Shown in pieces: positions 36,795 to 58,998 of a stretch of DNA of 64,000 bases. Position 1 is the stretch's first letter. Each line of letters starts with the position of its first letter. The notes under the pieces were generated by a model. That model searched no databases. It was not told where the DNA came from and saw nothing but the letters and a program-made list of their open reading frames with translations. Origin of the DNA: Flavobacteriaceae bacterium (lineage in GTDB: Bacteria; Bacteroidota; Bacteroidia; Flavobacteriales; Flavobacteriaceae); the NCBI GenBank assembly GCA_038153605.1, contig JAYOYS010000001.1, forward strand, positions 57,527 to 121,526. Reading direction: 5' to 3'. The translations under genes were made by a program, and so were the position numbers.

Positions 36795-36800
36795 ACCGAT

Positions 36801-37130: not shown

Positions 37131-37322
37131 GTTTATAAATTTTAAAATCGAATCTTCCAAGATTCAGGATTCTAAAGATACAATTTCATCCTAAAGACTT
37201 GGGTTAAAAACACGCGCATTTAACGCCCTTTTAACCTAGGGTTCTTACCGACGATCAGTGCAACGATGTCTTGCAATTCTGGCGACAGACCAGTCCGAAC
37301 TTTACCTATTCGCAGCTTATGC

Positions 37323-41441: not shown

Positions 41442-41455
41442 CGAAATCGTTTTCG
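41442..41455. promoter_or_regulatory. LacI-type operator candidate CGAAATCGTTTTCG
   Basis: Near-palindrome around a central CG, 154 nt upstream of the MFS ATG. The identical 14-mer occurs at 58985-58998. Confidence 0.45.
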
Positions 41456-41489: not shown

Positions 41490-42407
41490 TCAATCCAAAA
41501 TCGGGGCCATTAGCTCTGCCACCCACTCCATACTATCGCCACCTTCATGAGGGTCATTGCGGTAAATCTCAATAATTTCAGAACCTAAAGTTATTTTGTT
41601 ACGCTTGGCATGATCTAAAAGGGTGTACCAGCCTTGTTGGGAAATGCGATAGTTCCCATTAAAAATAGCTTTAAGGTAGCGATCGGATTTTAGGGTTTTA
41701 AAACGCACTTCTGGATCTTCAGGTCGCGGGGAAACTGAATCAATTGGAAAACAAAAATCAAAGTTTAAATCTTGAGTTATCGGATCCCAATGGGTCACTG
41801 TAATAAAAGGATCTCCTTTTAACTCAAGGTCGTTACCTTTAATATAGTCCATAACTGTGCTGATTTGGCGCAGCATTCCCTGAGCCTTGGTCGCTTCTTT
41901 GGTTTTCACAGGAATATAGGCGCAGAAAATTGGCTTTAAAACAGTGTCACTGATACTATGAACCTCGAAATTTTTACTTTTTTCGATCATTCCCTCGGCC
42001 AGAGATTGGGTTAGCGCAATACTCCTCTGAGGCACATAACTTTGTCCAAAGGGTAGACGTAATTTTTGACTCAAGGCCATATCTTGAGCTAAAAAACGCC
42101 CTTCTACACGAGTGCTACTATCAGCAACCCGTCTAATGGACCAATTTACTGAAAGCCTTCCTTCTGAACCCTCAATTTGCTGAATGAGTCGATCATAAAG
42201 TAAAAATTCATCATTCACCACTTGTAGTGAATCACGATGGCTGTAATCAGGCCAGGCCCGCAAATGATCAAAAACCACACCCGGAGGTTGTTTGGTGGTA
42301 AAACTAACCTTGTAGTGATAAGGAAAAACAAAAAGATAACTCAACACTACGATGGCAATCGAAAAAAGACCGAGATAAATGAACTTTTGTTTTTTAGTTT
42401 TAATCAT
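41490..42407 (-). CDS. membrane-anchored protein with SRPBCC-like N-terminal and GyrI-like C-terminal small-molecule-binding domains
   Basis: N-terminal TM anchor. The C-terminal half (GDPFITVTHWDP..., YLKAIFNGNY..., EIYRNDP) resembles GyrI-like effector-binding domains. Confidence 0.45.
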   Translation of the reverse strand: MIKTKKQKFIYLGLFSIAIVVLSYLFVFPYHYKVSFTTKQPPGVVFDHLRAWPDYSHRDSLQVVNDEFLLYDRLIQQIEGSEGRLSVNWSIRRVADSSTRVEGRFLAQDMALSQKLRLPFGQSYVPQRSIALTQSLAEGMIEKSKNFEVHSISDTVLKPIFCAYIPVKTKEATKAQGMLRQISTVMDYIKGNDLELKGDPFITVTHWDPITQDLNFDFCFPIDSVSPRPEDPEVRFKTLKSDRYLKAIFNGNYRISQQGWYTLLDHAKRNKITLGSEIIEIYRNDPHEGGDSMEWVAELMAPILD

Positions 42408-42421
42408 AGGGGTGATTTTAT

Positions 42422-43771
42422 TTAATTCTGCTCAGAGAATAGAGATTTAACAATCTGCTTACCCACTGATTTTCCTTGATCTAATCCGACCTCAATAGCA
42501 GCACGATAATGAATTCCGCCATACATTCTTGAGAGCGCTGCCTCTTGTGCTGCTTGTTCAAATGAAATAAAAGAGCGGATGGGTAATCCATAAGGTACCT
42601 CTGTATCATCGTCAAAGGCAAAATCGGGCCCAAAGATTTTGGTCAAAACTGTGGATGCAGCTCCAGAGACTACCGAATGGCCAGAGGTGTATTCAGGGAA
42701 AGGCGGTGTTTGTAGCACAGGTTTCCAGTTTTCATCCACATATTGATTGATCAGGGTTTCTGGACGAATAAGATTACTGCGGTATTTTTCGTCCCAACAG
42801 CTGATAAAGGCGTCAAATATGGCCATTGAGGTGTGCACATAGGCTGATACTGTTTGTCGGAAATTAAGCCCAGCTTGATTACAGGCAATTTTTGTAATTC
42901 CCATCCAGTGGGCCCCAGGAGTAATTTTTTTTGTGGCAAACATCAGGTGCCCGCGCGTTACTGAAACGTAAGGATTACAATCCCAAAACCGGGCCATCTG
43001 AATTTCATCTGAGCCATCCCCTTCGGCCTCTATTCGTTTACTGGTATCATAAACTTCCATAAGCTCTTGGTAAAAGGCACTGTTTTTTTCTAAAGAAAAG
43101 GCAGGAGGGAGGATCGGTTTAAATTGACTTGCCGAATCCAAGATAAGGGGTCTAATCTTATTCCAATGAGGTTCTATACCATCCATATAAGCCGGTGGGG
43201 TAGGTTGCCAACGTGATGGATCTTCGGTAATTACCGTAAATTTTGGCATAGTACGCGTTTGATTGTATTGATCTGTATTCATCCAAAGTTTTATGTGCTC
43301 TGCTACAGATAGTCCATAATCTTTGGACTTACTGAATTCGGACTTGTTATGTTTTGACCAAATGCCGTAAAGGCTATCTTGATATTGCTGCATTCGTTCT
43401 TCAGAAAACACCAAAGATTTACTCAGTTCCATATGGGCAATTAATGCCGCGAGCTCAAGATTAAGTGTGCTGTCTTTAGCCTGTGGTATAGGCTTTAGAT
43501 GTTTGATGGATTGAGTCAGCGAACTCATCTTTGGGTCTGATTGCGCCAAAATTTCATAGGCCGCAATATTAGGATAGGCATAGATGCGACTGGCCACTGG
43601 AGGAGAAAAAATGTCGTGTACCATTATGCTGGTGACCTTATCTACACTGCTCTGAAAATCAGTTGAACCCAACATTATGGGCTGGTCAGGAGCACAGCTG
43701 GCCAGAAGAAAAATGGCAGTAATAAAACTTAATCTTTTAAAATTCAATGCGGTAAATTTCAGTGGTTTCAT
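42422..43771 (-). CDS. PAP2-superfamily / vanadium-dependent haloperoxidase-like lipoprotein
   Basis: Lipobox FLLASC. Motifs KYRSNLIRP (KX6RP), YTSGHS (SGH) and SRMYGGIHYR (SRX5H). 35-nt overlap with the upstream gene. Confidence 0.7.
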   Translation of the reverse strand: MKPLKFTALNFKRLSFITAIFLLASCAPDQPIMLGSTDFQSSVDKVTSIMVHDIFSPPVASRIYAYPNIAAYEILAQSDPKMSSLTQSIKHLKPIPQAKDSTLNLELAALIAHMELSKSLVFSEERMQQYQDSLYGIWSKHNKSEFSKSKDYGLSVAEHIKLWMNTDQYNQTRTMPKFTVITEDPSRWQPTPPAYMDGIEPHWNKIRPLILDSASQFKPILPPAFSLEKNSAFYQELMEVYDTSKRIEAEGDGSDEIQMARFWDCNPYVSVTRGHLMFATKKITPGAHWMGITKIACNQAGLNFRQTVSAYVHTSMAIFDAFISCWDEKYRSNLIRPETLINQYVDENWKPVLQTPPFPEYTSGHSVVSGAASTVLTKIFGPDFAFDDDTEVPYGLPIRSFISFEQAAQEAALSRMYGGIHYRAAIEVGLDQGKSVGKQIVKSLFSEQN

Positions 43772-46700
43772 TGTTATAAATTACAATTAGATAGGATTGG
43801 TTGTTTATCATAATGGTGTCCAAGTGGCGTACGGATTTATTCCAAAGGTCGAGACCTAATTCAGCGGTACCAGAGACTTTTCCTTTGTGCTCAATCAGTC
43901 CCCCCGAAAAGGAATCAAAGCGGCCGTGAAAAGGAATTACCCCAAAATAATTCCCCCCGACAAGTATTTCTGAATTTTTATCTTGATCAAAATCAGCCAC
44001 CAAAAAAGTATTAATGGGGCTTTGCTGTAGCTGCTGGTCAAATGGCACAAAATGGTATGTACCGTTTTTAAATTCAAAATAGCCACTGGCCAACTCATGT
44101 ACCTGTAATACCTTGGCTTTGCTTAGATCAATACCCCGAATTTCAGTTATGGGTTGATCAGCAAAGTCCTTGTACCGGGTATAATGTTTGCGCAGAACCA
44201 CCATTTGAGCCGCTAAGTCATCTAATCCCAACAATGGGTAATCTTTACCCTGATGATAGGTGGTGAGTAAAGTTTCGCTCGCGCCATTAGCATCAAAATC
44301 ATGATACCAAAGCTTCATTGGGTGACTTTTTGAGGCCGTGAATTTACTGTTCAGCCCCCAATTACCTAAAAGTAAGTCTAGGTCCCCATCTTGATCAATG
44401 TCATGGGCGACTATACTTTGCCAGAGGCCATTTAATTCAGGAAAGGCATTAGTATTTTCCTTAAAACCACTTGCCGTTTGAATAAAAAGTTTGGGCTTCA
44501 TCCAATGACCAATAACCACCAGATCCATGAGCGTATCTTGATTAAAGTCCATCCAAAGGGCATCGGTAATCATCCCTAAATTTTCAAAAGTCTCTATTTT
44601 TTTGTCCCCACGGAAGATATAGGAGGGGACACCCGCACCAAAGTCTTGGGGCACTGAAAAGTTGCCTATAAAAAGCAAGTCCTCGTGGCCACGCACAACA
44701 TGAGTGTTGGCCAAAGCCCCTTCTAGAGATACAGCTTTGATTTTTGATGTGTCTTGCTTTAGCGGGTTAACAGGCCAAGATTTATTTTCAAAAACAGCGG
44801 CCGATGGGGACACGGAATTCCCTGCAGCGGCCATTACAAGCTGCGGTTGGCCTTGGCTCTGGTAAATTGTTGCATCGACAAATTCTTGCAGGCTATCTTG
44901 AGCGGGTCCAAAATCGGTAATGGCTTTAAATCCTTTTTTATCGGCCAAGAATAGCTTTGCGGGTTGATTTTTACCTCCACTAATCAAGACATCTTTAAGA
45001 CCATCTTGATTAAAATCATAACCTAAATAAGCCGGTCCAAAATCTGAGGCTTGGTATGGGGAAAGTTTTTGTGCGTTAAAATCGGTGAAATCATCTTCTC
45101 TGTGGGTAAACTTAAGGCCCAGTGCCCCGGGTTCTTTGATAAATCTGAATTTTGGTCTTTGATCGACTTTATTTTGCTCAAACTCTTTTATGACTTCAAC
45201 AGGCTGTTTTTGGCCTTCATCAAAGGGGGTGTCTTCGACGTATTTTATGGTCCAAAATCCTGGAGACAAGTCTATATCAATCCATTGCTGCTGCCCATTG
45301 GGCCAAATAAGTTCTAAACCGGTTATGGTTTGATCTTTAGGTAAGGCAAAATGAAGTAAGGGCTCAGAACAAGACTGGAAGCCTCGTACGCTGTAGAGCT
45401 CTCTGTATTGCATCCCCTGTGGGGTATAGAGATAGGCTTTTGCACCAATGCCATAGTGATTTTCTCGCGTATACTCCAAGGATATGCTCAGCCCCGAATT
45501 CCGTGTTAAGGCCTCCGAAGTTCCAGAGGTCTCAGAGGCCCCCGTTAGTGTGTTAGTGCCGGAACCAGAGTCTAAGGAAATACTTTGATTAACGTACAAG
45601 CCCACAGCAGACCCCGTGTTGTTGGTGACCAAATCTAAATCTCCATCACGGTCTAAATCTCCGACTACCGAGGCTCCAGAGAGGCTCAGTTCGGTGCTGC
45701 CCCAAAGGGTACTGACATCTTTGAATTGGATGCCTTCTTGACCTTGATAAAAGAAATTTACAGCAGCGCCAGAGGGCATCATTTCTATAGCCGATTGATC
45801 CACCAAACGACTGTCATTAATTTGCTTGTGGATTTCTTGATTAGAAATGAATTTAATGTAGTCTAGGTTGTTGGGTCGTCGACTAATGCCGTTTGAGATA
45901 AACAAATCTAAATGACCATCTAAGTCGTAATCCCCGAATAAAGCACTCCAACTCCAGTCGGTAGCCGCTACCCCACTGTAGAGTGCAGTTTCCGTGAAAT
46001 TGCGCCCTTTTTGATTGACAAACAGCATATTGCGGCTATACTGATAGTGATAGCCATAACCTTGGGTGCGCAGTTTTAAAGTTTGTACTGGGTCATCACC
46101 TTCGCTGGTTTTGAGTAAAGCCTCTGTTTGAGGCAGCATATCGAGTGAAATTAAATCTGGCCAGCCATCATTGTTGATATCCGCTACATCATTACCCATA
46201 GAAAAACGAGAAATATGACTAAAGGCCGAGCGCAGCTGTTCAGTAAAAGTCCCATCCTGATTGTTGTGGTAATAGTAGTCGTCTTCGTGAAAGTCATTGC
46301 CCACATAGATATCTGGCCAACCATCTTTATCAAAGTCAGCAACACTGACCCCAAGACCATAGGCATTAACACCCCCTATAATCCCGGCCTGCTCACTCAC
46401 TTCGGTAAACACCCCGCCATCATTGCGCAACAGGCGGTCTCCTGTTTTGGGGTTGCGGGTATAACGCAGGTCAACCCGCCCAAAGGACTCTTGTGTATGA
46501 ACAGCATGATTGAGTAAATACAGATCGAGATCACCGTCTAAATCATAGTCCAGTACGGTCGACATCGTTCCAAAATCTTCAAAAGCTAATCCATATACCG
46601 CGGCCGATTCGGTAAAGGTTAAATCACCGTTATTGATGTACAGTTCATTGTGCCCTTTGAAACCATTAATCCCCACTACGGCACTAATGTAAATATCTTG

Positions 46701-47081
46701 GAGACCATCACTGTTTGCGTCAAAAATAATACAACCCGTTTGCCAGTCGCTTTGGCCTAAGACTCCTGCAGATTCTGTAATGTCCTCAAAGGTCATGTCC
46801 CCTTTATTGATATATAGAGCATTAGGACCTTGATTAGCAGTAAAATATAAGTCAGGGAGGCCGTCGTTATTGAGATCACCCATGGCTGCACCGCCCCCAT
46901 TATAATAATATAGATAATCCAAAATATTAAGACTATCCGTAGGGTTCAGGGTATTCTGAAATTTTAAACCACTCTGCTCTGCCTCCGGTATCACAAAAAG
47001 GGGAGTGGCCCTTTTATTACAGCCTACCAAGCTAAAAATAAGCATCCAAATAGTCCAATATGTCCAGAAGGTCCTGCGCAT
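43737..47081 (-). CDS. FG-GAP/VCBS repeat lipoprotein with central UnbV/ASPIC-type domain (CRTAC1-like), paralog 3 of 3
   Basis: Lipobox SLVGC. Many DxNxDGxxD Ca-loop repeats (DLNNDGLPD, DYDLDGDLD, DINNDGWPD). UnbV-like segment YGIGAKAYLY...RGFQSCSEPLLHFAL...LELIWPNGQ. Confidence 0.85.
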   Translation of the reverse strand: MRRTFWTYWTIWMLIFSLVGCNKRATPLFVIPEAEQSGLKFQNTLNPTDSLNILDYLYYYNGGGAAMGDLNNDGLPDLYFTANQGPNALYINKGDMTFEDITESAGVLGQSDWQTGCIIFDANSDGLQDIYISAVVGINGFKGHNELYINNGDLTFTESAAVYGLAFEDFGTMSTVLDYDLDGDLDLYLLNHAVHTQESFGRVDLRYTRNPKTGDRLLRNDGGVFTEVSEQAGIIGGVNAYGLGVSVADFDKDGWPDIYVGNDFHEDDYYYHNNQDGTFTEQLRSAFSHISRFSMGNDVADINNDGWPDLISLDMLPQTEALLKTSEGDDPVQTLKLRTQGYGYHYQYSRNMLFVNQKGRNFTETALYSGVAATDWSWSALFGDYDLDGHLDLFISNGISRRPNNLDYIKFISNQEIHKQINDSRLVDQSAIEMMPSGAAVNFFYQGQEGIQFKDVSTLWGSTELSLSGASVVGDLDRDGDLDLVTNNTGSAVGLYVNQSISLDSGSGTNTLTGASETSGTSEALTRNSGLSISLEYTRENHYGIGAKAYLYTPQGMQYRELYSVRGFQSCSEPLLHFALPKDQTITGLELIWPNGQQQWIDIDLSPGFWTIKYVEDTPFDEGQKQPVEVIKEFEQNKVDQRPKFRFIKEPGALGLKFTHREDDFTDFNAQKLSPYQASDFGPAYLGYDFNQDGLKDVLISGGKNQPAKLFLADKKGFKAITDFGPAQDSLQEFVDATIYQSQGQPQLVMAAAGNSVSPSAAVFENKSWPVNPLKQDTSKIKAVSLEGALANTHVVRGHEDLLFIGNFSVPQDFGAGVPSYIFRGDKKIETFENLGMITDALWMDFNQDTLMDLVVIGHWMKPKLFIQTASGFKENTNAFPELNGLWQSIVAHDIDQDGDLDLLLGNWGLNSKFTASKSHPMKLWYHDFDANGASETLLTTYHQGKDYPLLGLDDLAAQMVVLRKHYTRYKDFADQPITEIRGIDLSKAKVLQVHELASGYFEFKNGTYHFVPFDQQLQQSPINTFLVADFDQDKNSEILVGGNYFGVIPFHGRFDSFSGGLIEHKGKVSGTAELGLDLWNKSVRHLDTIMINNQSYLIVIYNNETTEIYRIEF

Positions 47082-47094
47082 GAATTGATTCAGT

Positions 47095-50000
47095 TTAGGG
47101 GAGTTTATAGACCAAAGGTTTTTGATTATTTACGGCCACAAAAATATAGGCCTTGCCATGGGCATCCTCAAATGTTTTAATGTGTTTGATCTCATCACGC
47201 ACATAAAATCCACTGTCATTATAGTTTTGCCACTTAAAATTTTGTGCTCCATCATTTATCAAGACACTGCCAAAATCAGAGTCGAGTCGAGAGAACTGAG
47301 GTCGAAATTCATGATTATTGCCTCCAGCAATGATGTCTAGGGCACCATCTTTGTTGAGATCCACACAAGCGATTCCACAGATACAAGAAAGTTGTGCTCG
47401 TGACGGTAAATCTTCAAAGGTAAATCGACCATCGCCTTGATTATAGGCAATCACTGAGTGGGCATAACGGGCTTCCAAAACCGTAGTATTACTCAGAACC
47501 GCTGGGGTAAATAGTTCTTGAATAGATTTAGTGGCGTATTCAGAGGCTTTTAAATTTTGTTTTTTTAATGAGACCATTTGAGTCGTCATTTCTTTTTTCT
47601 GGTGGATGGGCATATCCCGGCCTTCCAGATTTTGAGAAATGATTTGTTCATAGGTTCCATTGCTGTCAAAATCATTGACCCACAATCGCATTGGGGCTTT
47701 GTCGTTCGGCTTATAATGAATATTACCCCCCTGATTACCCAAGATTAAATCTGTATCGCCATCTCCATCCATGTCAGCCGCAGTAAGGGTATTCCACCAG
47801 CCAGAGCGCTGGTCCAAATCACTGGGCATAAGCTCAAATTTGTCCTTTTTCCATTGATAAATATGCGGTGCTCCCCAATCCGACACGGTTACTAGGGCAG
47901 GGCCTTGGGCCAATTCAATCCATTGTGCTCCTGTAACCATTCCTGATTCCTGCAAGGCTTTAGCCTTTTGGTTTGAGCGGTCTTCAAAACTTCCCGCCCC
48001 GGTATTCTGCAAAAAGAATTGCTTCGGGCGCATGCCATAAACCCCAACAATACTTCGAGAAGTAACCACAAGATCTAGGTCTCCATCACCGTCCACATCA
48101 AAGGGCGCGATGGCCGAGATATTATTGATATTGCTTAAACTGATTATGGGTGATTTACTAAAATTGCCACGACCATCATTCAGGTAGAGTCGTAAGGATT
48201 CTCGGGCAGCTTCATCGACTTGATTTCCTCCAGAACCCACCAGTAGATCCAAATCACCATCCCCGTCAATATCGGCAAAGGTAGCAGCGGTGTCCTCAAA
48301 ATTAGCATCTTTAGAGAGGTCCTCGTGGGATTTTTGACTGAGCTTACCCGCACCAAAGTGCAAGAGAACCTGTCCTGATTGCCCTTTGGCACCCCCTAAG
48401 AATATATCTTGATTTCCGTCACCATTGAGGTCACCCACCGCCATGCAAGGTCCTTCTTGAGAGATCATTTTACCTAAGAGACCTTCGTAATCAAAATCGT
48501 TATAGGCGTTTTCTTTGTGCTGGGTCAAAGAAGGATTATCTACAGCGCTCAGCAGTGTGGGGGTAGAGCTCTGTTTTTGTGCCCCTTGGAACCCACCGGC
48601 ATTAGCCTGGTCTTGCTTTAATTCCAGCTTTTGATTTACAGCGACATCCCTCAAAATGGTTTTTTGATCATTAGGCCATAAGACCTCAAGCGAATCAATG
48701 TGGCTTTTTGCCCCAAGACCAATGGTCATGACATAGTCCATTGAGGACTGAAAGCCTCTAGAGGGCTGCAGTTCTTGAACGATCAGCTCTTGCCCAGCAT
48801 AAAGCTTAATAGAGCTTCCAATGGCAAATTTATTTTGTGTTGGGCCTTCGAGTTGTATTTTGATATAGTTGTTTTGATCAATCTCATTACTATGATTTTG
48901 ATAAACAAAGGCCTGCATATTGACATTATTCACCACTAGGTCAAGGTCTCCGTCATTGTCAAGATCTCCGTAGGCCGCCCCATTGGAGAGACTGGGCACA
49001 CCAAGACCCCATTCTTGAGCCTTATTGTCAAAAGTAAGGTCCTTTTGATTGTGAAAGGCGTAGTTGGGCAGGGGATAGACAGGCATTTTATTGATAATGG
49101 AATCGATGGCCTCTTTTTTACCCGTTAGGGCCATATCCTGAATGATTTCATTGGCAAAGAAATCGACAAAATCTAAATCCGTGAGATCGTGATTGATCCC
49201 ATTAGTCACATAGATGTCGCGATAACCGTCATTATCCATATCAAAAATTAGCCCGGACCAGCTCCAATCGGTCGCTGACACCCCACTGAAATAGGCAATC
49301 TCAGAGAAACTACCATTTCCATTATTGAGCTGAAGCGTGTTTTGAATATACTGCTGAAAGAAATCTTTACTTTGCTTGAGCTTAAAGACGTTATAGCCCT
49401 CAAATTCCATAACGGATTTCACTCTTTGGTCCCCATCGGGCAGCATATCGGTAATAAAAATATCATTGAGTCCGTCATTATTGATATCGGCCATATCAAC
49501 CCCCATGGCCGATAGACATAAGTGTGAGGTCCAATTTTTAATGTCTTCGTTAAAGGTTCCGTCTTGATTGTTGATGTAGAGGTAGTCCCGTTCGTAAAAA
49601 TCATTAGAGACATAGATATCCGGATAGTTGTCGTGATTTACATCGCTGACCATAACCCCAAGGCCAAAGCCAATTAAACTTCCGTAAATTCCTGCTTGTT
49701 CGCTCACATCAGTAAACACGCCATTATCATTACGCAAAAGCATATCCCCAACTCCTCGAAACATTTTTGGGACATTCCAATCTTGAGCACGCACATCGCG
49801 TTGATGGGCAAAGCCGAGACTGCTCACCGGTATATTACTATTGTTTAAAATGTAGGCATCTAAGTCTCCATCCTTGTCATAATCAAAAAAACTTGCATGA
49901 GTTGAGAACCCTGTTTCTGCCAGGTTGTAGGCCTTAGCCTGTTCGCTAAAGGTTAAGTCGCCATTATTGATGTAAAGGTCATTATTGTGGTTTTCCCCTT

Positions 50001-50427: not shown

Positions 50428-50430
50428 AGA

Positions 50431-53400
50431 TTATTTATTTTTTTCAATCATTAAAGGAGTATCGTTATTACGGGCCATTATCCAGAGGGTATCCTTAGGC
50501 CTAGGCAGAGTTGTCCATGCGCGACCGGCTCCGAGCCAGGGTTCTTTGGTTATTTTTTCAAATTGGAATTTACCTTGTTGATTTAATAAAGCTCCGCCCT
50601 TGAAAGCGTCCAGACGACCGAGTTGTGTGCTGAGCTGATAGTCGTTGCCGCAAAGGAGCAGATCTTCCCAGCCATCATTATTTATATCTACAATTTTTAA
50701 ATCGCGTATGCTCGAAAATTGGGCATCTACGGGTAATGAGTGTTTGATAAATGAAAGCCCACCTGTATTTTCAAAATAACAACTCTCAAGTTCTGTCACG
50801 GACTTAATAAGACCAGCAGCCAATGATTTTTCACCAAAAATATCTCCTACCGAGGCTTTAGCGAAATCCGCAAAGGACAAAAACTTTTTATTGATCATGG
50901 GAATTTGCTTGGCTAGTTCTTCTTTGGAGGCCAGAGTGGTTTCTTTACCCTGCAGATAATATGTCACTACAGTTTCTTCCGATTGGTTTTGATCAAAGTC
51001 GTAGCGATAAAGTCTGATGGGCTCCTTTGTCGAGGCCTTCCATCGCAAATTGGTTCCCCAATTACCGGCAACTATATCTAAATCACCGTCGTGATCAAAA
51101 TCTGCGACAGCTACTGATGACCAAAGGCCATAGAGTTCATCGATTATAGTATTTTGCATCCGTTGCAGGCCGGAGTCCGTATTCAGCCACAAGGAAATTG
51201 TATTCCAATGTCCGCAACTAATGGCATCAAGAGTACCATCATCATTGAGATCAGCCCAAACGATGTCGCTGATGGCCCCACTTTTGCTAAAAGTATCACC
51301 CCACTGATGGGTGACGTCTTGAAAACGACCATTGCCGAGATTTTTGAGTAAATAGTGCTTTGGATCTACGCCAAATTCGTGAGCTTTTGCTTTGGCCGTA
51401 AATACTAAATCTTCAAAACCATCATTGTTTAAATCAATAGCGGAAATAGTGCTGGTGGTTTGCACAAATTCTGGAAATGCTTTAGGGTCGTAAACAAACT
51501 CCGTCAATAAAGTAGAGTCTTTAGCAGACCTGGCCTCAGCAGCGAGGTAAAGGCGGGGGCGTAATGCTGCACCACTACTGAATTCGTTGCCACCATAGCC
51601 AATTAGGATATCAATGAGTCCGTCGTTATTGGCGTCTAGCAAGGTCACTGCGGTACCCTCACCAAGATTATCCACTTGATCCGAAAAATCTATTCTTCTA
51701 AATACGCCGTCTTTTTGTTGGAAAAATACTGCCGTATTTTGTCCTTTGGCCCCAGTAATGACCAAATCCTGTAGACCATCGTTATTAAAGTCGCCGCTCG
51801 TTATCGCCGGCCCTTCATTGTTTAGCGCATACGGGGCCAATGGATTTCGGTTGAAATCCAGAGCAGAACGCTCCTGGTGCTGCCATTCTAGCCCTTCCAC
51901 AACTTTGGCCAAGGGTTTGGTCGTGCTTTGCACTAATGATTCCTTGCGAATTGATATACTCGTATCTTTCTCAATAATTAAATATTGGTTTGTGGCTACC
52001 TCAGTAGCGACTTGACGCCCTCCAGATGGCCATAGGACCACAAGTGAATCGAGCTGTTTTATAGTACCAAGTCCAAAATGGACAAGATCAGGGCCCGATG
52101 AAAGAAATCCTCGAGTGGTATAGTTTTCGCGAATGAATTTTTGGTCTTTATAATAGGCGGTAATTCGAGCCCCTAAACCGCTCCTGTTTTTTGTGTTGTC
52201 TCTGAGTGCCACACTCAGATAATGATTTTTGGGATCCCAATTGCGTGATTGATTCTCTAAAATAAAGCAAGCTTCGTTAACATTATTCACCACTAAATCT
52301 AAATCTCCGTCCAAATCCAAATCGGCATATGCAGCGCCATGGCTATAACTCGGAATTTCTGGAATCCAAGATCCGGTCTGATCTTGAAAATGACTGCCAT
52401 CAGTATTTTTGAAAATATAATTCGGTGTTTTTTTTGCCGGAATCGCCTCGATAAAACTCATGGCATCCCGCTTCATATTTCCGCCTAATTGCTTTTGAAT
52501 AGACTCATTAGCAATAAAATTTATAAAATCCATATCATTAGTAGCCCCCAGAATTCCATTGGTGACGAATAAATCCGTAAGCCCGTCTAAATCAAAATCC
52601 GCCAGTAAGGGACTCCAAGACCATTCTGTAGCTGATATGCCAGAGGCATTTCCTATTTCACTAAAAACACCTTCCCCACGATTCAGTTGAAGAGTATTTT
52701 GCATGTACTGATAATCGTAGCCGTTTTTTATATACTGATCGTAAAGCTGATAATTGAATTCAGTTCCTGAAGTTTTATAGGTAACAAGATCTTCTGGAAG
52801 CATATCCGCTGAGACCAAATCTATCAGACCATCGTTGTTGATATCCCCACTATCATTACCCATAGAGTAGTGGGTTGTGTGTCCTACGGTTTCGTTTTGA
52901 GTGTGGATGACTTCTTTAAAGGTCTTGTCTTTTTTATTGAGGTAGAGATAATCATTTTCGAAGAAGTCATTACCGACATAGATGTCAGGATAACCATCGT
53001 TATTGTAATCTGCGATGGATAAGCCAAGGCCATAGCCTATACCTCCTTGGAAGATACCGGCCTCTGATGATACATCCACAAAAATACCCTCCTTATTTTC
53101 ATAGAGTCGGTCTCCTGAAATTGAATCAGTTTTTTCACGTTTGCCGCCATTGCCATAATTCATGTTTGGATTTACACTGTGGTTAAGTAGGTATAAATCG
53201 AGGTCACCATCGAGATCGTAGTCAAAAAAGCTACTGTGAGTGCCGAGTCCGCGAAAATCCAAGCCATAGGCCTGTGATTGATCTTCAAATATGGGTTGTC
53301 CGTTTTCATCTAAGCCTTGGTGTACCCATAAAGTGTTGTGAACTTGGGGCACTGAATCTGCAGCGACGCGTGCCAAATAAAGATCTGGCCAGCCATCTCC

Positions 53401-53784
53401 GTTGACATCACCTATTGAAATTCCATTATTCCAACCATTAGTAAGAGTAGGAAGCGTGGCTTTACTGAATTCTAAGCTTCCATTATTGATATAGAGTTCC
53501 GGAGATTTTTGGTTTGCCCCAAAAATGAGATCAGGGAGACTGTCATTATTGAGATCTACGATGGTAACTCCAGCTCCATTATAGAAGTAGATATAGTTTA
53601 AAATGTTTTGACTCGGTGAGGAGTTAATTCGATTCTCAAAGTTTATTCCTGTGTGGTCAGAGGATTTTAATATAAAGAGAAAGCGGGTTTCATCCGCACA
53701 GGCGCCAAAAAGCATAAGGATCACAATCCCGGGCAAGAGGGAAGTGCACTTGAAGTAATTTTGAACAATTTTTTGCAGCGTCAT
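50431..53784 (-). CDS. FG-GAP/VCBS repeat lipoprotein with UnbV/ASPIC-type domain, paralog 1 of 3
   Basis: Lipobox LFGAC followed by acidic ADE. Same architecture, with UnbV-like NRSGLGARITAYY...RGFLSSGPDLVHFGLG...LVVLWPSGG. Confidence 0.85.
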   Translation of the reverse strand: MTLQKIVQNYFKCTSLLPGIVILMLFGACADETRFLFILKSSDHTGINFENRINSSPSQNILNYIYFYNGAGVTIVDLNNDSLPDLIFGANQKSPELYINNGSLEFSKATLPTLTNGWNNGISIGDVNGDGWPDLYLARVAADSVPQVHNTLWVHQGLDENGQPIFEDQSQAYGLDFRGLGTHSSFFDYDLDGDLDLYLLNHSVNPNMNYGNGGKREKTDSISGDRLYENKEGIFVDVSSEAGIFQGGIGYGLGLSIADYNNDGYPDIYVGNDFFENDYLYLNKKDKTFKEVIHTQNETVGHTTHYSMGNDSGDINNDGLIDLVSADMLPEDLVTYKTSGTEFNYQLYDQYIKNGYDYQYMQNTLQLNRGEGVFSEIGNASGISATEWSWSPLLADFDLDGLTDLFVTNGILGATNDMDFINFIANESIQKQLGGNMKRDAMSFIEAIPAKKTPNYIFKNTDGSHFQDQTGSWIPEIPSYSHGAAYADLDLDGDLDLVVNNVNEACFILENQSRNWDPKNHYLSVALRDNTKNRSGLGARITAYYKDQKFIRENYTTRGFLSSGPDLVHFGLGTIKQLDSLVVLWPSGGRQVATEVATNQYLIIEKDTSISIRKESLVQSTTKPLAKVVEGLEWQHQERSALDFNRNPLAPYALNNEGPAITSGDFNNDGLQDLVITGAKGQNTAVFFQQKDGVFRRIDFSDQVDNLGEGTAVTLLDANNDGLIDILIGYGGNEFSSGAALRPRLYLAAEARSAKDSTLLTEFVYDPKAFPEFVQTTSTISAIDLNNDGFEDLVFTAKAKAHEFGVDPKHYLLKNLGNGRFQDVTHQWGDTFSKSGAISDIVWADLNDDGTLDAISCGHWNTISLWLNTDSGLQRMQNTIIDELYGLWSSVAVADFDHDGDLDIVAGNWGTNLRWKASTKEPIRLYRYDFDQNQSEETVVTYYLQGKETTLASKEELAKQIPMINKKFLSFADFAKASVGDIFGEKSLAAGLIKSVTELESCYFENTGGLSFIKHSLPVDAQFSSIRDLKIVDINNDGWEDLLLCGNDYQLSTQLGRLDAFKGGALLNQQGKFQFEKITKEPWLGAGRAWTTLPRPKDTLWIMARNNDTPLMIEKNK

Positions 53785-53870
53785 TTTTGGACGGAATTTT
53801 CCAACGACTAATATAGTTCCTTAGTGTCGCCGCTTTGGTAGTATAAAAATTAAAAAGATTAATAAAAGAT

Positions 53871-53906
53871 TAAAAAAAAAAGCCACCCTATGTGGGTGGC
53901 CTTTTT
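53871..53906 (-). terminator. hairpin plus U-run between susD and the first FG-GAP gene (intra-locus terminator/attenuator)
   Basis: Stem GCCACCC/GGGTGGC (7 bp) with a 5-nt loop. On the minus strand it is followed by a run of about 10 T. Confidence 0.7.
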
Positions 53907-53926
53907 GATGTATTGAAAACCTTAGA

Positions 53927-55486
53927 TTAGTATCCAGGATTCTGAACTAAGTTAGGGTTTGATAATAGAGCATTTACCGGAATTGGGTAAAGTTTCCATG
54001 TATCATCACCAACTGAAGCTTCGTTTTTGAATTCCCAAGCTCTTGTGAATTGTCCGAAACGCAACATGTCGTTTCTTCTCCAGAACTCAACGTATAATTC
54101 ACGTCCACGCTCAGCCAATAGATCAGCATCAGACACACTTCCTAGTGGAGTAGCACCACGAAGGGTACGTAACTCATTCACTAATGGAGTGGCATTGCCG
54201 CCCATACGCATCATAGCCTCAGCCTTCATTAAGTGCGCATCCGCATAGCGGAAAACGATCTCATGTGAACGGAAAGATCCACCATCATCACCAGGGTGAT
54301 ACTTAATGATTCGGATACCCGTGGCCTCACCATTACCCGATAGACCAGGAAGTTCTTTGGTGAAAACAAGTGGGTTACCAGAACGATCTTTTAAGATGGT
54401 TCCATCTTCTTCGTACTGCTGACCAACTAAGAAACCATAACCGATACCTAAGTTTTGAGAGTCAGCGTCATTAGCACCAGGCACCCATCCACGACGCTCT
54501 TCTTGTCCAGATCCAGCAGCGTTGCCCTCTGGTCCTTCGAAGCTGTCGTAAAATTCAGCCAAAGTAGTGAATCCGTTCCATCCTCCACCTGAGTTGTCAG
54601 GAGAGTTTTGGTTGTAGTGAAGACCATTCCAAATACGGTTTCCTACACCAGCTTTGGCATACCAAATGGTTTCAGAATCTGGAACATCTTGTTTGAAAAT
54701 ATCAAAGTAACCAGCTTGTAGCGCATAACCTTCAGCCGCAATTGCATCTACGTGATCTACAACAGCCTGGTAGTTAGGCTGAGATCCAGTGTAACGCTCA
54801 GAGTTCAACATAACCTTAGCCAACATAAAGTGACCAGCGGCACGGTTTGCTCTGGAGTGACCTTCTTCAGATGGACCAGGGCCTGCCATTGGCAAGTTTG
54901 GTAACGCTGTTTCTAGATCGTTTACGATGAAGTTATAAGCCTCAGAAGCTGAAAACACAGATGGGTTAACATCTGAAGCATCTGTTGGCTGACGGAAAGG
55001 TGCTACACCATAAAGGTCCAACACAAAATACATACTGAACGCACGTAAGAAACGGGCTTGAGCTTCTTGTTCTGCATTAGGCGCACTCAATGGATCTAGG
55101 ATCTGAGAAGCGCGCAAAACATTTTGGTTCAAGTTGTTCCAAGTGTTTAACACAAATTGGTGTGTAGGACTCCAAGTGTGTGCATGAAGCGTTCTCCAGA
55201 TTCCATTATCCCCCCAGTCTGTACCACGAGTTGGTACTAGGGTTTCGTCTGTTGATACTTCATTCAAGGCAAAGAAATTCCCTTGATCACCAAGTTGTCC
55301 GTAGGTGTCATTATATAGGTTAGTAATTGATGCATCTACATCAGCTACTCCTTCGAATACTGTAGAACCTTCAGCGATGATAGAATCAGATTCTTCAATC
55401 GCTAAGTCTGTACAGGAAACGGTCAATAAAGATAGAAACGCAGTTGCTAGAACAGGCTTCATGAATTTTATCATGTTTCTTTTCAT
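53927..55486 (-). CDS. susD: SusD/RagB family nutrient-binding outer-membrane lipoprotein
   Basis: Lipobox LLTVSC, TPR-like SusD sequence, located immediately downstream of the SusC-type gene. Confidence 0.88.
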   Translation of the reverse strand: MKRNMIKFMKPVLATAFLSLLTVSCTDLAIEESDSIIAEGSTVFEGVADVDASITNLYNDTYGQLGDQGNFFALNEVSTDETLVPTRGTDWGDNGIWRTLHAHTWSPTHQFVLNTWNNLNQNVLRASQILDPLSAPNAEQEAQARFLRAFSMYFVLDLYGVAPFRQPTDASDVNPSVFSASEAYNFIVNDLETALPNLPMAGPGPSEEGHSRANRAAGHFMLAKVMLNSERYTGSQPNYQAVVDHVDAIAAEGYALQAGYFDIFKQDVPDSETIWYAKAGVGNRIWNGLHYNQNSPDNSGGGWNGFTTLAEFYDSFEGPEGNAAGSGQEERRGWVPGANDADSQNLGIGYGFLVGQQYEEDGTILKDRSGNPLVFTKELPGLSGNGEATGIRIIKYHPGDDGGSFRSHEIVFRYADAHLMKAEAMMRMGGNATPLVNELRTLRGATPLGSVSDADLLAERGRELYVEFWRRNDMLRFGQFTRAWEFKNEASVGDDTWKLYPIPVNALLSNPNLVQNPGY

Positions 55487-55496
55487 AATTTATTTT

Positions 55497-58400
55497 TTAA
55501 AATTTAGCGTTAAGTCCAAAAGTAAATGTTCTCGGTCTTGGGTATGATGCGTAATCGATACCAAATACTGGAAGACCATTCAACAAGTCTCCACCTGAAG
55601 GCGAGCTGCTAACTTCAGGATCTAAACCTGAATAATCTGTGATAACAAATAGGTTTTGTCCTGTTACAGAGAACACTAATGACGAGAAGAATTCATCGCC
55701 AGATAGTGGCCAGTTATAACTTACAGTAGCGTTCTGGAAACGAACGAAATCACCACTCTCTAAGAAACGAGTTGAAACGTCTGCTGCAGCATCAAATGAT
55801 TCACCAGCGGTAAGTACGTCTGAAGTCACGTTACGTCCACCACGGAATGCACCTGCTGTGAAGAAAGCGTTAGCCGTGTTGTTGTAGATATAGTGACCAA
55901 ACTGTCCTGAGAAGTAAGCTGAAGCTGTCCAACGCTTGTAGCTCAATGAAGTTGAAAGACCTCCAGTTAGGTTTGGCAATGCGCTTTTACCTACGAAGTC
56001 TTGAACGTCAGTTTGAACTGGTTGTCCAGTTGCAGGATCAAATCCTTCAAATTCACGCAAGAAGTAAGAGAACAATGGTTCACCAGCTTTTAGCTTTTGA
56101 GCGAAAGCCAATGAAAGACCTTGTCCACGAATAGTACCTGCATCGAATTCTCCTTGTAATTCTTCAACCATGTTATCGTTATAAGCCGCGTTCAAGGTGG
56201 CATTCCAAGTCAAATCATCACTTGAGATTAGGTCATAGCCTAAACTCAATTCAAAACCTTGGTTCACCACTTTAGAATCAGGCAAGTTCAAGAACAAGAA
56301 TGGTTGTACTGAAGGCTGAGCCGCCAATACGTTGAATAATAGGTCAGAAGTCTCTTTACGGTATACATCAACACTACCGTTGAAACGGTCATTGTTGAAA
56401 CCGAAGTCAAGACCTGCTGCATATTGCATAGTTTCTTCCCACTTAAGTGCTGGGTTTGGATAAGAAACGTCTACGATACCAGGAATATTGATGTTACCAC
56501 CATCATCTGGTCCTCCACCAGCATAACGCTGTCTTTGTGTAAAGTTACCATATCCAAGACCTTCTTGGTTACCAGTGATACCCGCACCTAAACGAAGTTT
56601 CAAAGTAGAGATGTTGTCGCCTACGAAGTCTTCGTTGTGTAATTTCCAAGCAAAAGCTCCTGAAGGGAAGTATCCGTACTGATTGTCCTCACCAAAACGA
56701 GAAGAACCGTCTGCACGAACTGTTGCTGTGAATAAATACTTGTCATTGATTGAGTAATTCACACGACCAAAGTAAGATTGTAACTCGTCAGTATTGTCGT
56801 AAGTATCAACAAAAATCGATTTTACACTTAGATTGTTAAGGTCAGTAATCACGTCTGTAGTTGGTTCTGGGAACAAACGGTTAACGAAAATACCGCCAGT
56901 GTTTCCGGCAAAACCGTACTGCTGATAGTCACCAGTGATCTTTGCTTCGATAGCATTAGCGGTGCTTTCAATAGCATCACCCATTTCGTCCATGTTTTCG
57001 GTAAAGAATCCCCAAGCGTTAGCGGTACGACCGTTACGGTTGAAATTCTGATAAGAATAACCAGCCAAGATGTCAAGGCTAGAATTTCCGAAATCTTTAG
57101 AGTAGTTTAAGGTGGCCTCTAATAGTTCACTGCTTGTGTTTAGATCACTCAAGATTCCACGTCCATTTCCAAAAGCACCAGCACCAAAGTTACGAGCGTT
57201 TGGCGAAGAAACTCCGATTCTAGTCGATTCTGATTCATCTAGACCAATATTAACTCTTGCAGAAAGGTCAGAAGTCAAAGCGTATTCTGCGGATACATTA
57301 ACCAACATACGGTTAGTGTTTGCAGTGTTTTGATAGTAATCTAACATTGTTGCTGGAGACAATAAACCTCCAGTTCCATCGAAGTCAGGTGAAGTTGGCC
57401 AAGTTGGGTTAGCTGAGTATGCCGCACCAAGTAAGTCTCCACGGAAACCAGCACTAGCAGCGGTAGCAGCACCTTCATCATTCACACGAGAAAGTGTTGA
57501 TTGAACTCCAATCTTCAATTTATCGTTCAAGAATCTTTGATTCCAGTTAATACGACCAGTGATACGCTCCAAAGAGGTATTCTCAACAACACCAAAGTTC
57601 TTGCTGTAACCAAAGGTCGCACGCAGGTTACCTGATCCATAATTGTTAGAATAAGCTAAGTCGTTGTTGGTCGAAGTCGATGTTCTAAAAATGTAATCTT
57701 GCCAGTTTGTATTTGACCCGAAATCACGCTCCTCAACATTGAAACCAAAATCAGCGGCACGGCTCAAATATTTTTCAGCAGACAATAAGTCAAAAGTCTT
57801 TGCTACTGAAGCTACAGCCATGCTAGATGAATACTCCCATGAAGATCCTCGTGCTCCTTTACCAGATTTAGTGGTAATGAAAACAACTCCATTCGCACCA
57901 CGTGAACCATAAATGGCAGCAGCAGATGCATCTTTCAAAATACTGATACTTTCAATATCGTTAGGGTTGATAAAAGCTAATGGGTTTTTGGCAGAGTTTG
58001 ATCCGATCCCAGTATTCGCAGTTTCAGCTGAAGTATTACCTCCTGACAACGGAATACCATCCACTACAAAAAGTGGATTGTTGTTAGATCGAACAGAAGC
58101 TGCTCCACGAATACGGATATCGATGCCCGCTCCTGGCTCACCATTGCTCTGAGAAATCTGAACCCCGGCTGTTTTACCCTGGATCAATTGCTCAGGTGAA
58201 GTGATAACCCCTTGGTTAAAGTCTTCGGCAGTTACTGCTGTTACGGAACCGGTTGCATCTTGAACCGTTGTAGTACCGTAACCAATAACCACAACTTCAG
58301 CCAATGCTTGAGCGTCTTCTGCTAGCATTACGTCGACTGTCGACTGGCCATTCACGGCAACTTCTTGGGTTGCATAGCCAATATAACTGAAGACCAAAGT

Positions 58401-58610
58401 GGCGTCATTAGCGACGTCGCTGATGGAATAGTTACCGTCGAAATCAGTTTGTGCTCCAGAAGAAGTTCCTTGCACCACAACATTTACTCCGGGAACAGGA
58501 CCATTTGCATCGGTGACCGTTCCACTAACAGTCATCTGCGCAAATGCGGTACTTCCCATGAGTAAAATCACAGGGAGCAACAAAAGTTTAGTTAGTAGTT
58601 TGTTTTTCAT
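55497..58610 (-). CDS. susC: SusC/RagA family TonB-linked outer-membrane transporter
   Basis: 1037 aa. N-terminal carboxypeptidase-D-regulatory-like domain (VSGTVTDANGPVPGVNVVV), plug (SILKDASAAAIYGSRGANGVV), a large barrel, and a C-terminal ...GLNAKF. Confidence 0.92.
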   Translation of the reverse strand: MKNKLLTKLLLLPVILLMGSTAFAQMTVSGTVTDANGPVPGVNVVVQGTSSGAQTDFDGNYSISDVANDATLVFSYIGYATQEVAVNGQSTVDVMLAEDAQALAEVVVIGYGTTTVQDATGSVTAVTAEDFNQGVITSPEQLIQGKTAGVQISQSNGEPGAGIDIRIRGAASVRSNNNPLFVVDGIPLSGGNTSAETANTGIGSNSAKNPLAFINPNDIESISILKDASAAAIYGSRGANGVVFITTKSGKGARGSSWEYSSSMAVASVAKTFDLLSAEKYLSRAADFGFNVEERDFGSNTNWQDYIFRTSTSTNNDLAYSNNYGSGNLRATFGYSKNFGVVENTSLERITGRINWNQRFLNDKLKIGVQSTLSRVNDEGAATAASAGFRGDLLGAAYSANPTWPTSPDFDGTGGLLSPATMLDYYQNTANTNRMLVNVSAEYALTSDLSARVNIGLDESESTRIGVSSPNARNFGAGAFGNGRGILSDLNTSSELLEATLNYSKDFGNSSLDILAGYSYQNFNRNGRTANAWGFFTENMDEMGDAIESTANAIEAKITGDYQQYGFAGNTGGIFVNRLFPEPTTDVITDLNNLSVKSIFVDTYDNTDELQSYFGRVNYSINDKYLFTATVRADGSSRFGEDNQYGYFPSGAFAWKLHNEDFVGDNISTLKLRLGAGITGNQEGLGYGNFTQRQRYAGGGPDDGGNINIPGIVDVSYPNPALKWEETMQYAAGLDFGFNNDRFNGSVDVYRKETSDLLFNVLAAQPSVQPFLFLNLPDSKVVNQGFELSLGYDLISSDDLTWNATLNAAYNDNMVEELQGEFDAGTIRGQGLSLAFAQKLKAGEPLFSYFLREFEGFDPATGQPVQTDVQDFVGKSALPNLTGGLSTSLSYKRWTASAYFSGQFGHYIYNNTANAFFTAGAFRGGRNVTSDVLTAGESFDAAADVSTRFLESGDFVRFQNATVSYNWPLSGDEFFSSLVFSVTGQNLFVITDYSGLDPEVSSSPSGGDLLNGLPVFGIDYASYPRPRTFTFGLNAKF

Positions 58611-58984
58611 ATAATTCTCGGTTTTAGGTTAATTTACTTGTTAATCAGTCGTTTTCAAATATTACAAATACAAAGAGAGGCATTCAAACCGCAGGAATGC
58701 CGCAAATTGCGGTGAAATATACAATTTTTTTATCATATGATATAGCTTTTTTTCCTTTGGAAGTGAAACCAATCCCCGATAGCGCTAATTCTGTTTGATG
58801 TTCAGCACTTTGACTGAAGCGAAATCGACAGGGGATTGATTTCAATGCTTTTCCAAAGTACCGCACCATGTTTGACTTAAATGCTTCCATGATTACGGCT
58901 TAAGAAATAACCATATTAAGGTCCAATTTCTATCTTTTTTTTGAAAAATGAAGCGAATACAGCACAAATTGTCAATTTTGAATG

Positions 58985-58998
58985 CGAAATCGTTTTCG
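58985..58998. promoter_or_regulatory. LacI-type operator candidate CGAAATCGTTTTCG (second copy)
   Basis: Identical 14-mer to 41442-41455. It lies 76 nt upstream of the lacI-family ATG, inside the larger symmetric element AAATCG-N10-CGATTT. Confidence 0.45.

Follow-up and report, generated by a model that had tools for sequence, protein, structure and literature searches.

A SusCD locus of Flavobacteriaceae and Cytophagales with CRTAC1-like propeller lipoproteins and a predicted vanadium iodoperoxidase as its conserved cargo

What does a SusCD transporter import, and with which partners, when the genes that travel with it encode no recognizable carbohydrate-active enzyme (CAZyme)? The question is raised by a locus in a 64-kb stretch of contig JAYOYS010000001.1 of a Flavobacteriaceae bacterium (the window, to which all coordinates refer), where seven minus-strand genes lie in a row: susC (55497-58610; a SusC/RagA TonB-dependent transporter, 1037 aa), susD (53927-55486; a SusD/RagB lipoprotein, 519 aa), three genes for FG-GAP/UnbV_ASPIC double-propeller lipoproteins, here called P1 (50431-53784, 1117 aa), P2 (47095-50427, 1110 aa), and P3 (43737-47081, 1114 aa), a PAP2-family gene for a vanadium-dependent haloperoxidase (VHPO) lipoprotein (42422-43771, 449 aa), and a gene for a GyrI-like protein, anchored in the membrane by its N terminus and carrying the GyrI-like domain at its C terminus (41490-42407, 305 aa). 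A terminator-like hairpin (53876-53906, minus strand) stands between susD and P1. The open reading frame (ORF) list returns this arrangement as an initial annotation of the sequence had given it, including the 3 nt between P1 and P2, the 13 nt between P2 and P3, and the 35-nt overlap of P3 with the VHPO gene; the gap between susC and susD is 10 nt. That annotation had also noted an operon free of recognizable CAZymes, and Pfam and NCBIfam searches agree, with zero matches to CAZyme families among the seven proteins at E ≤ 0.01. Our preferred answer, held at slightly less than even confidence, is that the locus represents a SusCD uptake module, conserved in Flavobacteriaceae and Cytophagales and regulated by sugar, in which the propeller lipoproteins would act as capture or processing partners, and to which iodide oxidation at the cell envelope would be attached.

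Conservation of the whole gene set is the first line of evidence. One genome per species was scanned with P2, which yielded 80 loci with P2 orthologs (individual loci carry L numbers); presence is counted here over 52 full-length loci, median identities are taken over 37 complete loci, and intergenic gaps and the hairpin are described from 64 loci. The order susC-susD-(P1)-P2-P3-VHPO-GyrI recurs across related loci from two orders, with carriers in the Flavobacteriaceae (Dokdonia, Polaribacter, Psychroflexus, Galbibacter, Gilvibacter, Robertkochia, Sediminicola, Lutimonas, Aureisphaera, and Halomarinibacterium) and in the Cytophagales (Fulvivirga, Chryseosolibacter, and Cyclobacteriaceae members). 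Four genes were found in all 52 loci, namely, susD, P2, P3, and the GyrI-like gene (median identities of 55%, 63%, 48%, and 29%, respectively), while susC was present in 51 (56%), VHPO in 49 (65%), and P1 in 40 (47%); P2 is the most conserved of the three paralogs. The nearest related locus, L001, comes from a Flavobacteriaceae metagenome-assembled genome and shares 91 to 99% protein identity with the window. Median gaps downstream of P1 are small or negative (P1-P2, 4 nt; P2-P3, -8 nt; P3-VHPO, -4 nt; VHPO-GyrI, 7 nt), and the median distance from susD to the next gene is approximately 150 to 230 nt (154 nt for susD-P1). The proposal of the initial annotation that the paralogs are the cargo of the SusCD locus is thus backed by their conserved place in its gene content. 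By ortholog comparison, we take the P2-P3 pair to predate the split of the Flavobacteriaceae and Cytophagales lineages, which belong to two orders, with P1 added later.

Outside the Flavobacteriaceae, loci differ in how many propeller genes they have and in whether VHPO is present. Two Cytophagales loci, L067 and L072, have an extra P2-like paralog (40 to 41% identity) after the GyrI-like gene and no VHPO gene in the operon.

The second line of evidence concerns regulation. A lacI-family gene (59074-60096, plus strand), divergent from susC, encodes a protein with the Pfam LacI helix-turn-helix (HTH) and Peripla_BP_1/3/4 domains whose best NCBIfam matches are CytR, RbsR, and CcpA, each below its equivalog cutoff; a lacI ortholog occupies the same divergent position in 28 of the 52 loci. 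Exactly two perfect copies of the 14-bp palindrome CGAAATCGTTTTCG occur in the window, one in the lacI/susC intergenic region (operator 1, 58985-58998) and one on the plus strand between the GyrI-like gene and a transporter gene, MFS1 (operator 2, 41442-41455), 35 nt past the GyrI-like stop codon and 154 nt ahead of MFS1. The 14-bp palindrome CGAAAnCGnTTTCG stands upstream of susC in approximately 40 of the 80 related loci, whereas its ten specified bases would give only about 0.02 matches by chance in a 23-kb locus. Among these are loci in which lacI is not adjacent, for example, in Dokdonia and Polaribacter, where the site is found 75 to 160 nt from the susC ORF. The operator also precedes MFS1 in L001 and L003, and copies with one mismatch stand ahead of MFS1 in L005, L006, L008, and L017. 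These are the components of a LacI regulon, that is, a repressor with HTH and sugar-binding domains and a palindrome with a central CG before predicted target genes, and CGAAAACGTTTTCG is the predicted operator target of the LacI protein.

Because CGAAAnCGnTTTCG lies upstream of susC and lacI heads an operon of sugar genes, we assign the SusCD module, on these sequence grounds, to a LacI-type sugar regulon. The lacI-led operon (60135-63895, plus strand) encodes a glycoside hydrolase family 32 (GH32) beta-fructosidase (Pfam Glyco_hydro_32N/C; NCBIfam scrB_fam), a major facilitator superfamily (MFS) sugar porter (Pfam Sugar_tr, with an NCBIfam sugar porter match), and a PfkB kinase. On the other side of the module, MFS1 (39987-41288, minus strand) is a GPH/sucrose-symporter-like protein (Pfam MFS_1/MFS_2; a weak match to NCBIfam GPH_sucrose), and beside it is a PfkB sugar kinase gene (39003-39971, minus strand; fructokinase/IolC-like by NCBIfam). 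Since the second operator precedes MFS1, the link between the module and these sucrose-type genes is predicted to be one of coregulation and not of adjacency alone. The initial annotation had reported no hybrid two-component system (HTCS) gene and no extracytoplasmic function (ECF) sigma/anti-sigma gene; this holds among the neighbors that were scanned with Pfam, at 35.7 to 64 kb (ORFs at 1 to 31 kb were listed but not domain scanned), but the picture of a locus without such regulators has to be amended by the divergent LacI gene and its operator.

Two further features that may bear on regulation deserve mention. A conserved long-range inverted repeat with a 12- to 14-bp stem occupies the susC leader/promoter region (58764-58844, minus strand), its arms AAATCAATCCCC and GGGGATTGATTT, read in the minus-strand sense, lying at 58764-58777 and 58831-58844; 16 related loci have the repeat in the corresponding position, with arms 53 to 96 nt apart, RNAalifold predicts a 12-bp stem with compensatory changes in 3 pairs, and an invariant GAATTAGC box adjoins the 3' arm. 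This repeat may form a structure in the leader RNA or serve as a second site for a regulator. In eight loci (L020, L035, L037, L038, L059, L061, L064, and L066, from Robertkochia, Galbibacter, Lutimonas, and relatives), a divergent histidine kinase/response regulator pair stands between susD and P1 while the LacI operator is missing, which suggests that another regulator has taken over the module in these genomes.

The transporter pair itself is assigned by family models. SusC scores 656 bits against TIGR04056 (cutoff, 368) and 67.6 bits for the TIGR04057 signature in NCBIfam, and its Pfam domains are CarboxypepD_reg, Plug, and TonB_dep_Rec_b-barrel; no STN domain was detected by Pfam, with CarboxypepD_reg alone preceding the plug, in keeping with the earlier view that SusC lacks an N-terminal extension for anti-sigma coupling. 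SusD, encoded directly after susC, scores 75.7 bits against PF07980 (SusD_RagB; cutoff, 23.1), has the lipobox LTVSC, and finds its best PDB match in the starch SusD of Bacteroides thetaiotaomicron (3CK7; E = 1.5e-34). The hairpin that follows susD has a G+C stem of 13 pairs, 6 of which are G-C, that closes on a loop of 5 nt; it is flanked by an A run on one side and by 10 or more T residues on the other. In nearly every one of the 64 related loci, an equivalent hairpin with a T run comes after susD, although its sequence varies. A stem-loop with a T run in a conserved position is predicted to be an intrinsic terminator or attenuator.

Each of the three paralogs contains 7 to 9 FG-GAP_3 stretches (Pfam, E = 1e-58 to 1e-77) and one UnbV_ASPIC domain at approximately residues 535 to 602 (PF07593, 58 to 69 bits; cutoff, 23.4). 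Strict DxDxDGxxD calcium loops number 10 to 12 per paralog, with 12 in P1, and fall into two blocks, between which an RGFxS...WP motif lies near residues 557 to 566; P1 has the lipobox LFGAC. The architecture first read from the translations, with a lipobox, calcium-loop repeats, a central UnbV/ASPIC segment, and a second FG-GAP block in each protein, therefore agrees with the Pfam and motif scans. The paralogs are 44 to 46% identical in the N-terminal propeller, 26 to 34% in the C-terminal propeller, and 35 to 37% overall, and the BLASTP alignment of P2 with P3 (E = 5e-158) is far beyond chance. Orthologs in other genera share 57 to 95% identity for P2 and about 45 to 50% for P1 and P3, compared with the 35 to 37% between paralogs. 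Since orthologs of P1, P2, and P3 can be told apart in other genera, the duplications must be old, as the annotation had surmised from an estimated 40 to 50% N-terminal identity.

The structural affinities of these proteins lie with CRTAC1. An AlphaFold2 model of P2 (predicted local distance difference test score [pLDDT], 80.6; predicted template modeling score, 0.79) resembles murine CRTAC1 (9ETN) in its N-terminal half (Foldseek E = 7e-25; template modeling score, 0.72), and the rest of the model matched generic multipropeller scaffolds only. With the C-terminal half modeled on its own (pLDDT, 85.7), the matches included CRTAC1, ITFG2, the LGI1 EPTP domain, integrin alpha, and the biofilm protein Bap1 of Vibrio cholerae; the last four are propellers that bind ligands or proteins. 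By both sequence and fold, 9ETN is the top match, and all three paralogs belong to the CRTAC1/ASPIC-UnbV family. This family is very large, with 5,762 representatives after clustering at 50% (E ≤ 1e-30), and its database labels are limited to "VCBS repeat," "CRTAC1 family," "RNA-binding protein," and "enediyne biosynthesis protein E4." We know of no biochemical activity for CRTAC1/ASPIC or for the bacterial UnbV proteins.

Two differences among the paralogs were observed. P2 has a CxCxxxC motif (SCICGIAC) at residues 1015 to 1021 (window positions 47365-47385), just before the last calcium loop of the C-terminal propeller; it is nearly invariant among P2 orthologs and missing from P1 and P3, and it could be a metal site or form disulfides. 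The C-terminal propeller of P3 has 3 strict calcium-loop motifs versus 6 in P1 and P2, which suggests functional divergence of that domain.

The lipobox cysteine is conserved in 74 to 87% of the scanned P1, P2, P3, and VHPO orthologs. We confirmed the residues that had been quoted after it in the window (CADE in P1, CTDLAIEE in SusD, and CNKR in P3), but the contrast between CADE and CNKR, from which placement of the paralogs in different envelope compartments had been suggested, breaks down across orthologs: all four groups have a mixture of K and E after the cysteine (e.g., CQKKEQ, CSKKEN, and CKKEEP), and the CNKR of P3 in the window is an outlier, since just 3% of P3 orthologs have no acidic residue there. 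SusD differs in that its tail is acidic and strongly conserved (CTDLEIEET in orthologs). Assigning compartments from these residues is uninformative for P1 to P3 and for VHPO.

Both VHPO and the GyrI-like protein exceed their Pfam cutoffs (PAP2 and GyrI-like), and VHPO matches the PDB entries 4CIT and 4USZ ("vanadium-dependent haloperoxidase") with E = 8e-202 and 67.3% identity over 428 aa. Its motifs WDEKYRSNLIRPE, PEYTSGHS, SRMYGGIHYR, and the CNPY tyrosine are identical to those of 4CIT, and in the alignment with 4CIT the vanadate-site residues K, R, SGH, and R...H are all kept. We take these motifs to comprise the vanadate ligands and second-shell residues of Zg-VIPO1, the Zobellia vanadium iodoperoxidase, and Fournier and coworkers are said to have probed the second-shell residues by mutagenesis in 2014. 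Querying with 4CIT retrieved a 100%-identical Zobellia protein, and on its contig three FG-GAP/UnbV genes (1107, 1119, and 1101 aa) are followed by VIPO1 and then by a GyrI-like gene; the same arrangement is found in Maribacter algarum and Abyssalbus ytuae. The gene of Zg-VIPO1 thus sits in the same type of operon, which places a structurally characterized enzyme within the module. The designation "PAP2/haloperoxidase-like" of the initial annotation was right as to family but underspecified: VHPO is a close ortholog of Zg-VIPO1 and a predicted iodoperoxidase, and through it a characterized enzyme family, though not a CAZyme family, is represented in the locus. Logan contigs carry an identical VHPO. 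Apo-VHPO and PAP2 proteins are also capable of phosphatase activity.

The GyrI-like protein scores 41.7 bits against PF06445 (cutoff, 26) over residues 182 to 303, and a hydrophobic N-terminal helix is visible in its translation; for its N-terminal 150 residues, neither Pfam (even at E ≤ 5) nor a PDB sequence search gave a match. Domains of this kind bind small ligands, often aromatic ones. In several genera, the GyrI-like gene is followed by a conserved gene of about 285 to 290 aa for an apparent lipoprotein (L084, 12298-13164; L085, 12248-13102; cluster "unk7" in 9 loci), which has only faint Pfam matches to the propeller-like SdiA-regulated and Vgb_lyase families and has no counterpart in the window.

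In the model that we favor, the locus would be expressed as two units, susC-susD and a tightly coupled P1/P2/P3-VHPO-GyrI operon, and the hairpin that ends the first unit would presumably be a leaky terminator that leaves the transporter pair in excess over the downstream genes. The second unit would supply two or three Ca2+-stabilized, CRTAC1-like double propellers, a VIPO1-type iodoperoxidase lipoprotein, and a membrane-anchored GyrI-like ligand-binding protein. Expression would be gated by the LacI-family repressor on CGAAAnCGnTTTCG, and the same operator would control the sucrose-type MFS/kinase unit in this genome. Genes that follow susD usually encode surface glycan-binding proteins (SGBPs) in the form of lipoproteins, and the beta-propeller lipoproteins BtuG and XusB are capture lids on TonB-dependent transporters of Bacteroidota; by analogy, the propeller lipoproteins may sit with SusCD in the outer membrane as lid- or SGBP-like capture partners for a sugar-bearing substrate and possibly also process it. 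The haloperoxidase would convert H2O2 and iodide to hypoiodous acid (HOI) at the envelope, and HOI may either shield the uptake apparatus when algae nearby produce oxidative bursts or modify the substrate chemically. Small sugars that are freed would then be taken up across the inner membrane and phosphorylated by the products of the coregulated flanking genes. In all this, the gene content and order, the operator, the hairpin, the fold, and the orthology of the enzyme are observed, and the location of the proteins, their assembly into a complex, the class of substrate, and the role of HOI are proposed.

Several observations weigh against this proposal. Binding of P1 to P3 to SusCD, or to any ligand, is a step that we infer. 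The alignment of SusD with 3CK7 covers the N- and C-terminal thirds only and leaves the ligand-binding middle region unaligned, and SusD scores 163 bits against the model for starch-binding SusD proteins (NF033071), far below the cutoff of 725. P2, with a median identity of 63%, is more conserved than SusC and SusD (55 to 56%), a pattern less usual for an SGBP than for an enzyme. VHPO is missing from the operon in some Cytophagales and thus cannot be essential to the core. As for regulation, operator 1 of the window is 375 nt from the susC ATG and closer to lacI; eight loci have the two-component pair in place of the LacI operator; and an exact Bacteroidota -7 box (TAnnTTTG) is absent upstream of susC, P1, and MFS1, where a sigma-70 scan performed no better than on shuffled sequences.

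A further objection comes from the flanking sugar genes, which vary by genome (sucrose, trehalose, alpha-glucoside, xylose, and mannan) and so cannot define the substrate. Near the related loci we found GH37 trehalase in 16, GH100-like invertase in 14, GH65 in 12, GH13 in 11, and GH97 in 9, and other genomes add xylose isomerase, xylulokinase, and GH26/GH5 mannan genes; MFS1 follows the GyrI-like gene in 19 of the 52 full-length loci. The divergent GH32 operon had been read at first as a hint of fructan or sucrose. The second operator adds coregulation to that hint, but the variability of the flanks removes its fructan specificity, and a reading specific to sucrose or fructan is weakened. The predicted link of the module to sugar is robust; its link to fructan is not.

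The strongest competitor, which we regard as unlikely but not negligible, is that the propeller paralogs, chiefly P2, are a new class of envelope enzyme (lyase, hydrolase, or dehydratase-like) and hence the cargo equivalent of CAZymes. It would account for an operon that holds no other degradative enzyme and in which P2 and VHPO are the most constrained members, exceeding SusC and SusD. It is also in line with the 138 positions conserved throughout all three paralog groups, which include polar residues outside the calcium loops (the E279-D281-Y282-Y284-N286 motif, K337, Q359, W388-S389-W390, and H637), and with the presence of aldos-2-ulose dehydratase (4A7K), an enzymatic FG-GAP-like propeller, at rank 40 (TMq, 0.48) among the Foldseek matches of the C-terminal propeller. 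However, the top 50 Foldseek matches of either the full P2 model or the C-terminal model include no polysaccharide lyase or glycosidase, a profile search of the PDB returned CRTAC1 and integrins only, no Pfam or NCBIfam enzyme family was matched, and the closest structures are those of proteins that serve in binding or as scaffolds. In Pfam, NCBIfam, PDB sequence and profile, and Foldseek searches alike, the paralogs fit no characterized enzyme family, which agrees with the view of the initial annotation that they are either a new enzyme class or surface binding proteins. Membership in the polysaccharide lyase (PL) families PL11, PL22, PL24, PL25, and PL42 was likewise not found by Pfam, by PDB sequence and profile searches, or in the Foldseek top 50, and no lyase or hydrolase was recovered by either sequence or fold.

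Iodide chemistry offers another explanation, which we judge improbable: a sugar-induced envelope iodide/H2O2 system in which Ca2+-dependent propellers generate or channel H2O2 or bind an oxidized product, VIPO makes HOI for iodine accumulation or defense, and SusCD and the GyrI-like protein handle iodinated or oxidized small molecules. VHPO is translationally coupled to P3 and has as its ortholog a peroxidase of proven iodide specificity, LacI-type sugar regulation is compatible with a sugar requirement, and a propensity of GyrI-like domains for small, often aromatic ligands would suit such compounds. Against this, the paralogs show no redox cofactor motif or oxidase resemblance by Pfam or Foldseek, some Cytophagales keep SusCD-P2-P3-GyrI without VHPO, which makes the core independent of it, and the known ligands of SusD proteins are glycans and peptides rather than halogenated compounds. 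In the flavobacterium Arenibacter C-21, iodine uptake is reported to need glucose, O2, and Ca2+ and is ascribed to a membrane glucose oxidase together with a haloperoxidase (summarized in PMC5064120), which favors the iodide system, and an Arenibacter species has a P2 ortholog with 66% identity (P0075). Somewhat less probable again is a proposal in which the operon would encode an iodine chemistry of the flavobacterial envelope that depends on sugar, Ca2+, and H2O2, the propellers supplying or channeling peroxide or binding substrate and HOI serving iodine uptake or the attack on recalcitrant algal material that SusCD imports; if true, this would be oxidative, halogen-mediated nutrient acquisition without a CAZyme. 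Least probable of all is that the propellers are integrin- or Bap1-like adhesins or matrix proteins for attachment to algae or particles, merely colocated with SusCD, since P2 orthologs adjoin susCD in 51 to 52 of the 52 full-length loci from two orders and the paralogs have a lipobox and no Pfam match to a type IX secretion system (T9SS) sorting domain (E ≤ 0.01), which marks them as lipoproteins and not T9SS-secreted proteins, even though integrin alpha and Bap1 are among their structural neighbors and the susD hairpin and the regulator and xylose gene insertions between susD and P1 indicate that the two units are separable.

Comparison with known systems indicates that the locus is a variant of the SusCD kind of locus and not a new category. 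With classical Sus polysaccharide utilization loci (PULs), such as the starch Sus of B. thetaiotaomicron and flavobacterial alpha-glucan PULs with a divergent LacI regulator, it shares a susC-susD pair followed by lipoprotein genes, LacI-type regulation, neighboring transporter, kinase, and GH genes, and a SusD closest to 3CK7. In contrast to those PULs, CAZymes are encoded by 0 of its 7 genes, although the lacI-headed GH32 operon shares the intergenic operator region with susC; it also has no SusE/F/G homologs, and the starch-binding region of SusD is not conserved. In their place are the two or three CRTAC1-like double propellers of about 1,100 aa, the haloperoxidase, and the GyrI-like protein. 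VHPO, known here from its sequence, is like Zg-VIPO1 (4CIT/4USZ) in its vanadate-binding and second-shell residues, its lipoprotein nature, and its operon of three propeller genes, VIPO, and GyrI. To our knowledge, the structural work has not settled the physiological role of Zg-VIPO1, and in the literature that we searched we found no description of its operon context or of the SusCD-propeller locus itself.

The paralogs share with CRTAC1/ASPIC (vertebrate cartilage acidic protein 1; 9ETN) and with bacterial "UnbV/enediyne E4" proteins an FG-GAP Ca2+-loop propeller followed by a UnbV_ASPIC domain; they differ in their lipobox, their second, C-terminal propeller of the 7-bladed type, their SusCD operon, and the lack of an epidermal growth factor (EGF) domain. 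BtuG, for vitamin B12, and XusB, for siderophores, are likewise surface propeller lipoproteins beside a TonB-dependent transporter, but they serve as an analogy only: they are single propellers of about 350 to 450 aa that work with non-SusD transporters, and no sequence or fold match to P1 to P3 was retrieved. The beta-propeller lyases of PL11, PL22, PL24/25, and PL42 resemble the paralogs in their Ca2+-binding propellers and PUL context, but not in sequence, profile, or top-50 fold matches.

These findings place a very large protein family with no known biochemical function, to which about 10 kb of the operon is devoted, beside a crystallized bacterial iodoperoxidase, in a genetic setting that is defined, conserved, and regulated. 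The module is found in the cultivable genera Zobellia, Dokdonia, Polaribacter, and Maribacter, which makes both the function of bacterial CRTAC1/ASPIC proteins and iodide oxidation by marine Bacteroidota open to experiment. They also call for caution in PUL prediction, since a widespread SusCD locus whose conserved cargo is not a CAZyme matters wherever substrates are inferred from CAZyme content.

Some features of the surroundings remain to be described. An Rfam scan of the window returned two tRNAs only, both outside the SusCD locus. In L022, L046, L078, and L085 (Muriicola, Eudoraea, Maribacter, and relatives), genes for xylulokinase, xylose isomerase, and an SSF transporter lie between or just upstream of susD and the propeller genes, and this transporter is 74 to 75% identical to an SSF protein encoded in the window at 37323-38972. 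Directly downstream of the window's SSF gene is an arsenosugar biosynthesis cluster (31275-37160, minus strand) that is complete by NCBIfam, comprising a peroxidase-like protein (TIGR04169), the radical-SAM protein ArsS (TIGR04167), a rhodanese (NF045521), two glycosyltransferases (TIGR04282 and TIGR04283), a purine nucleoside phosphorylase, and the arsenosugar ArsM (NF038099).

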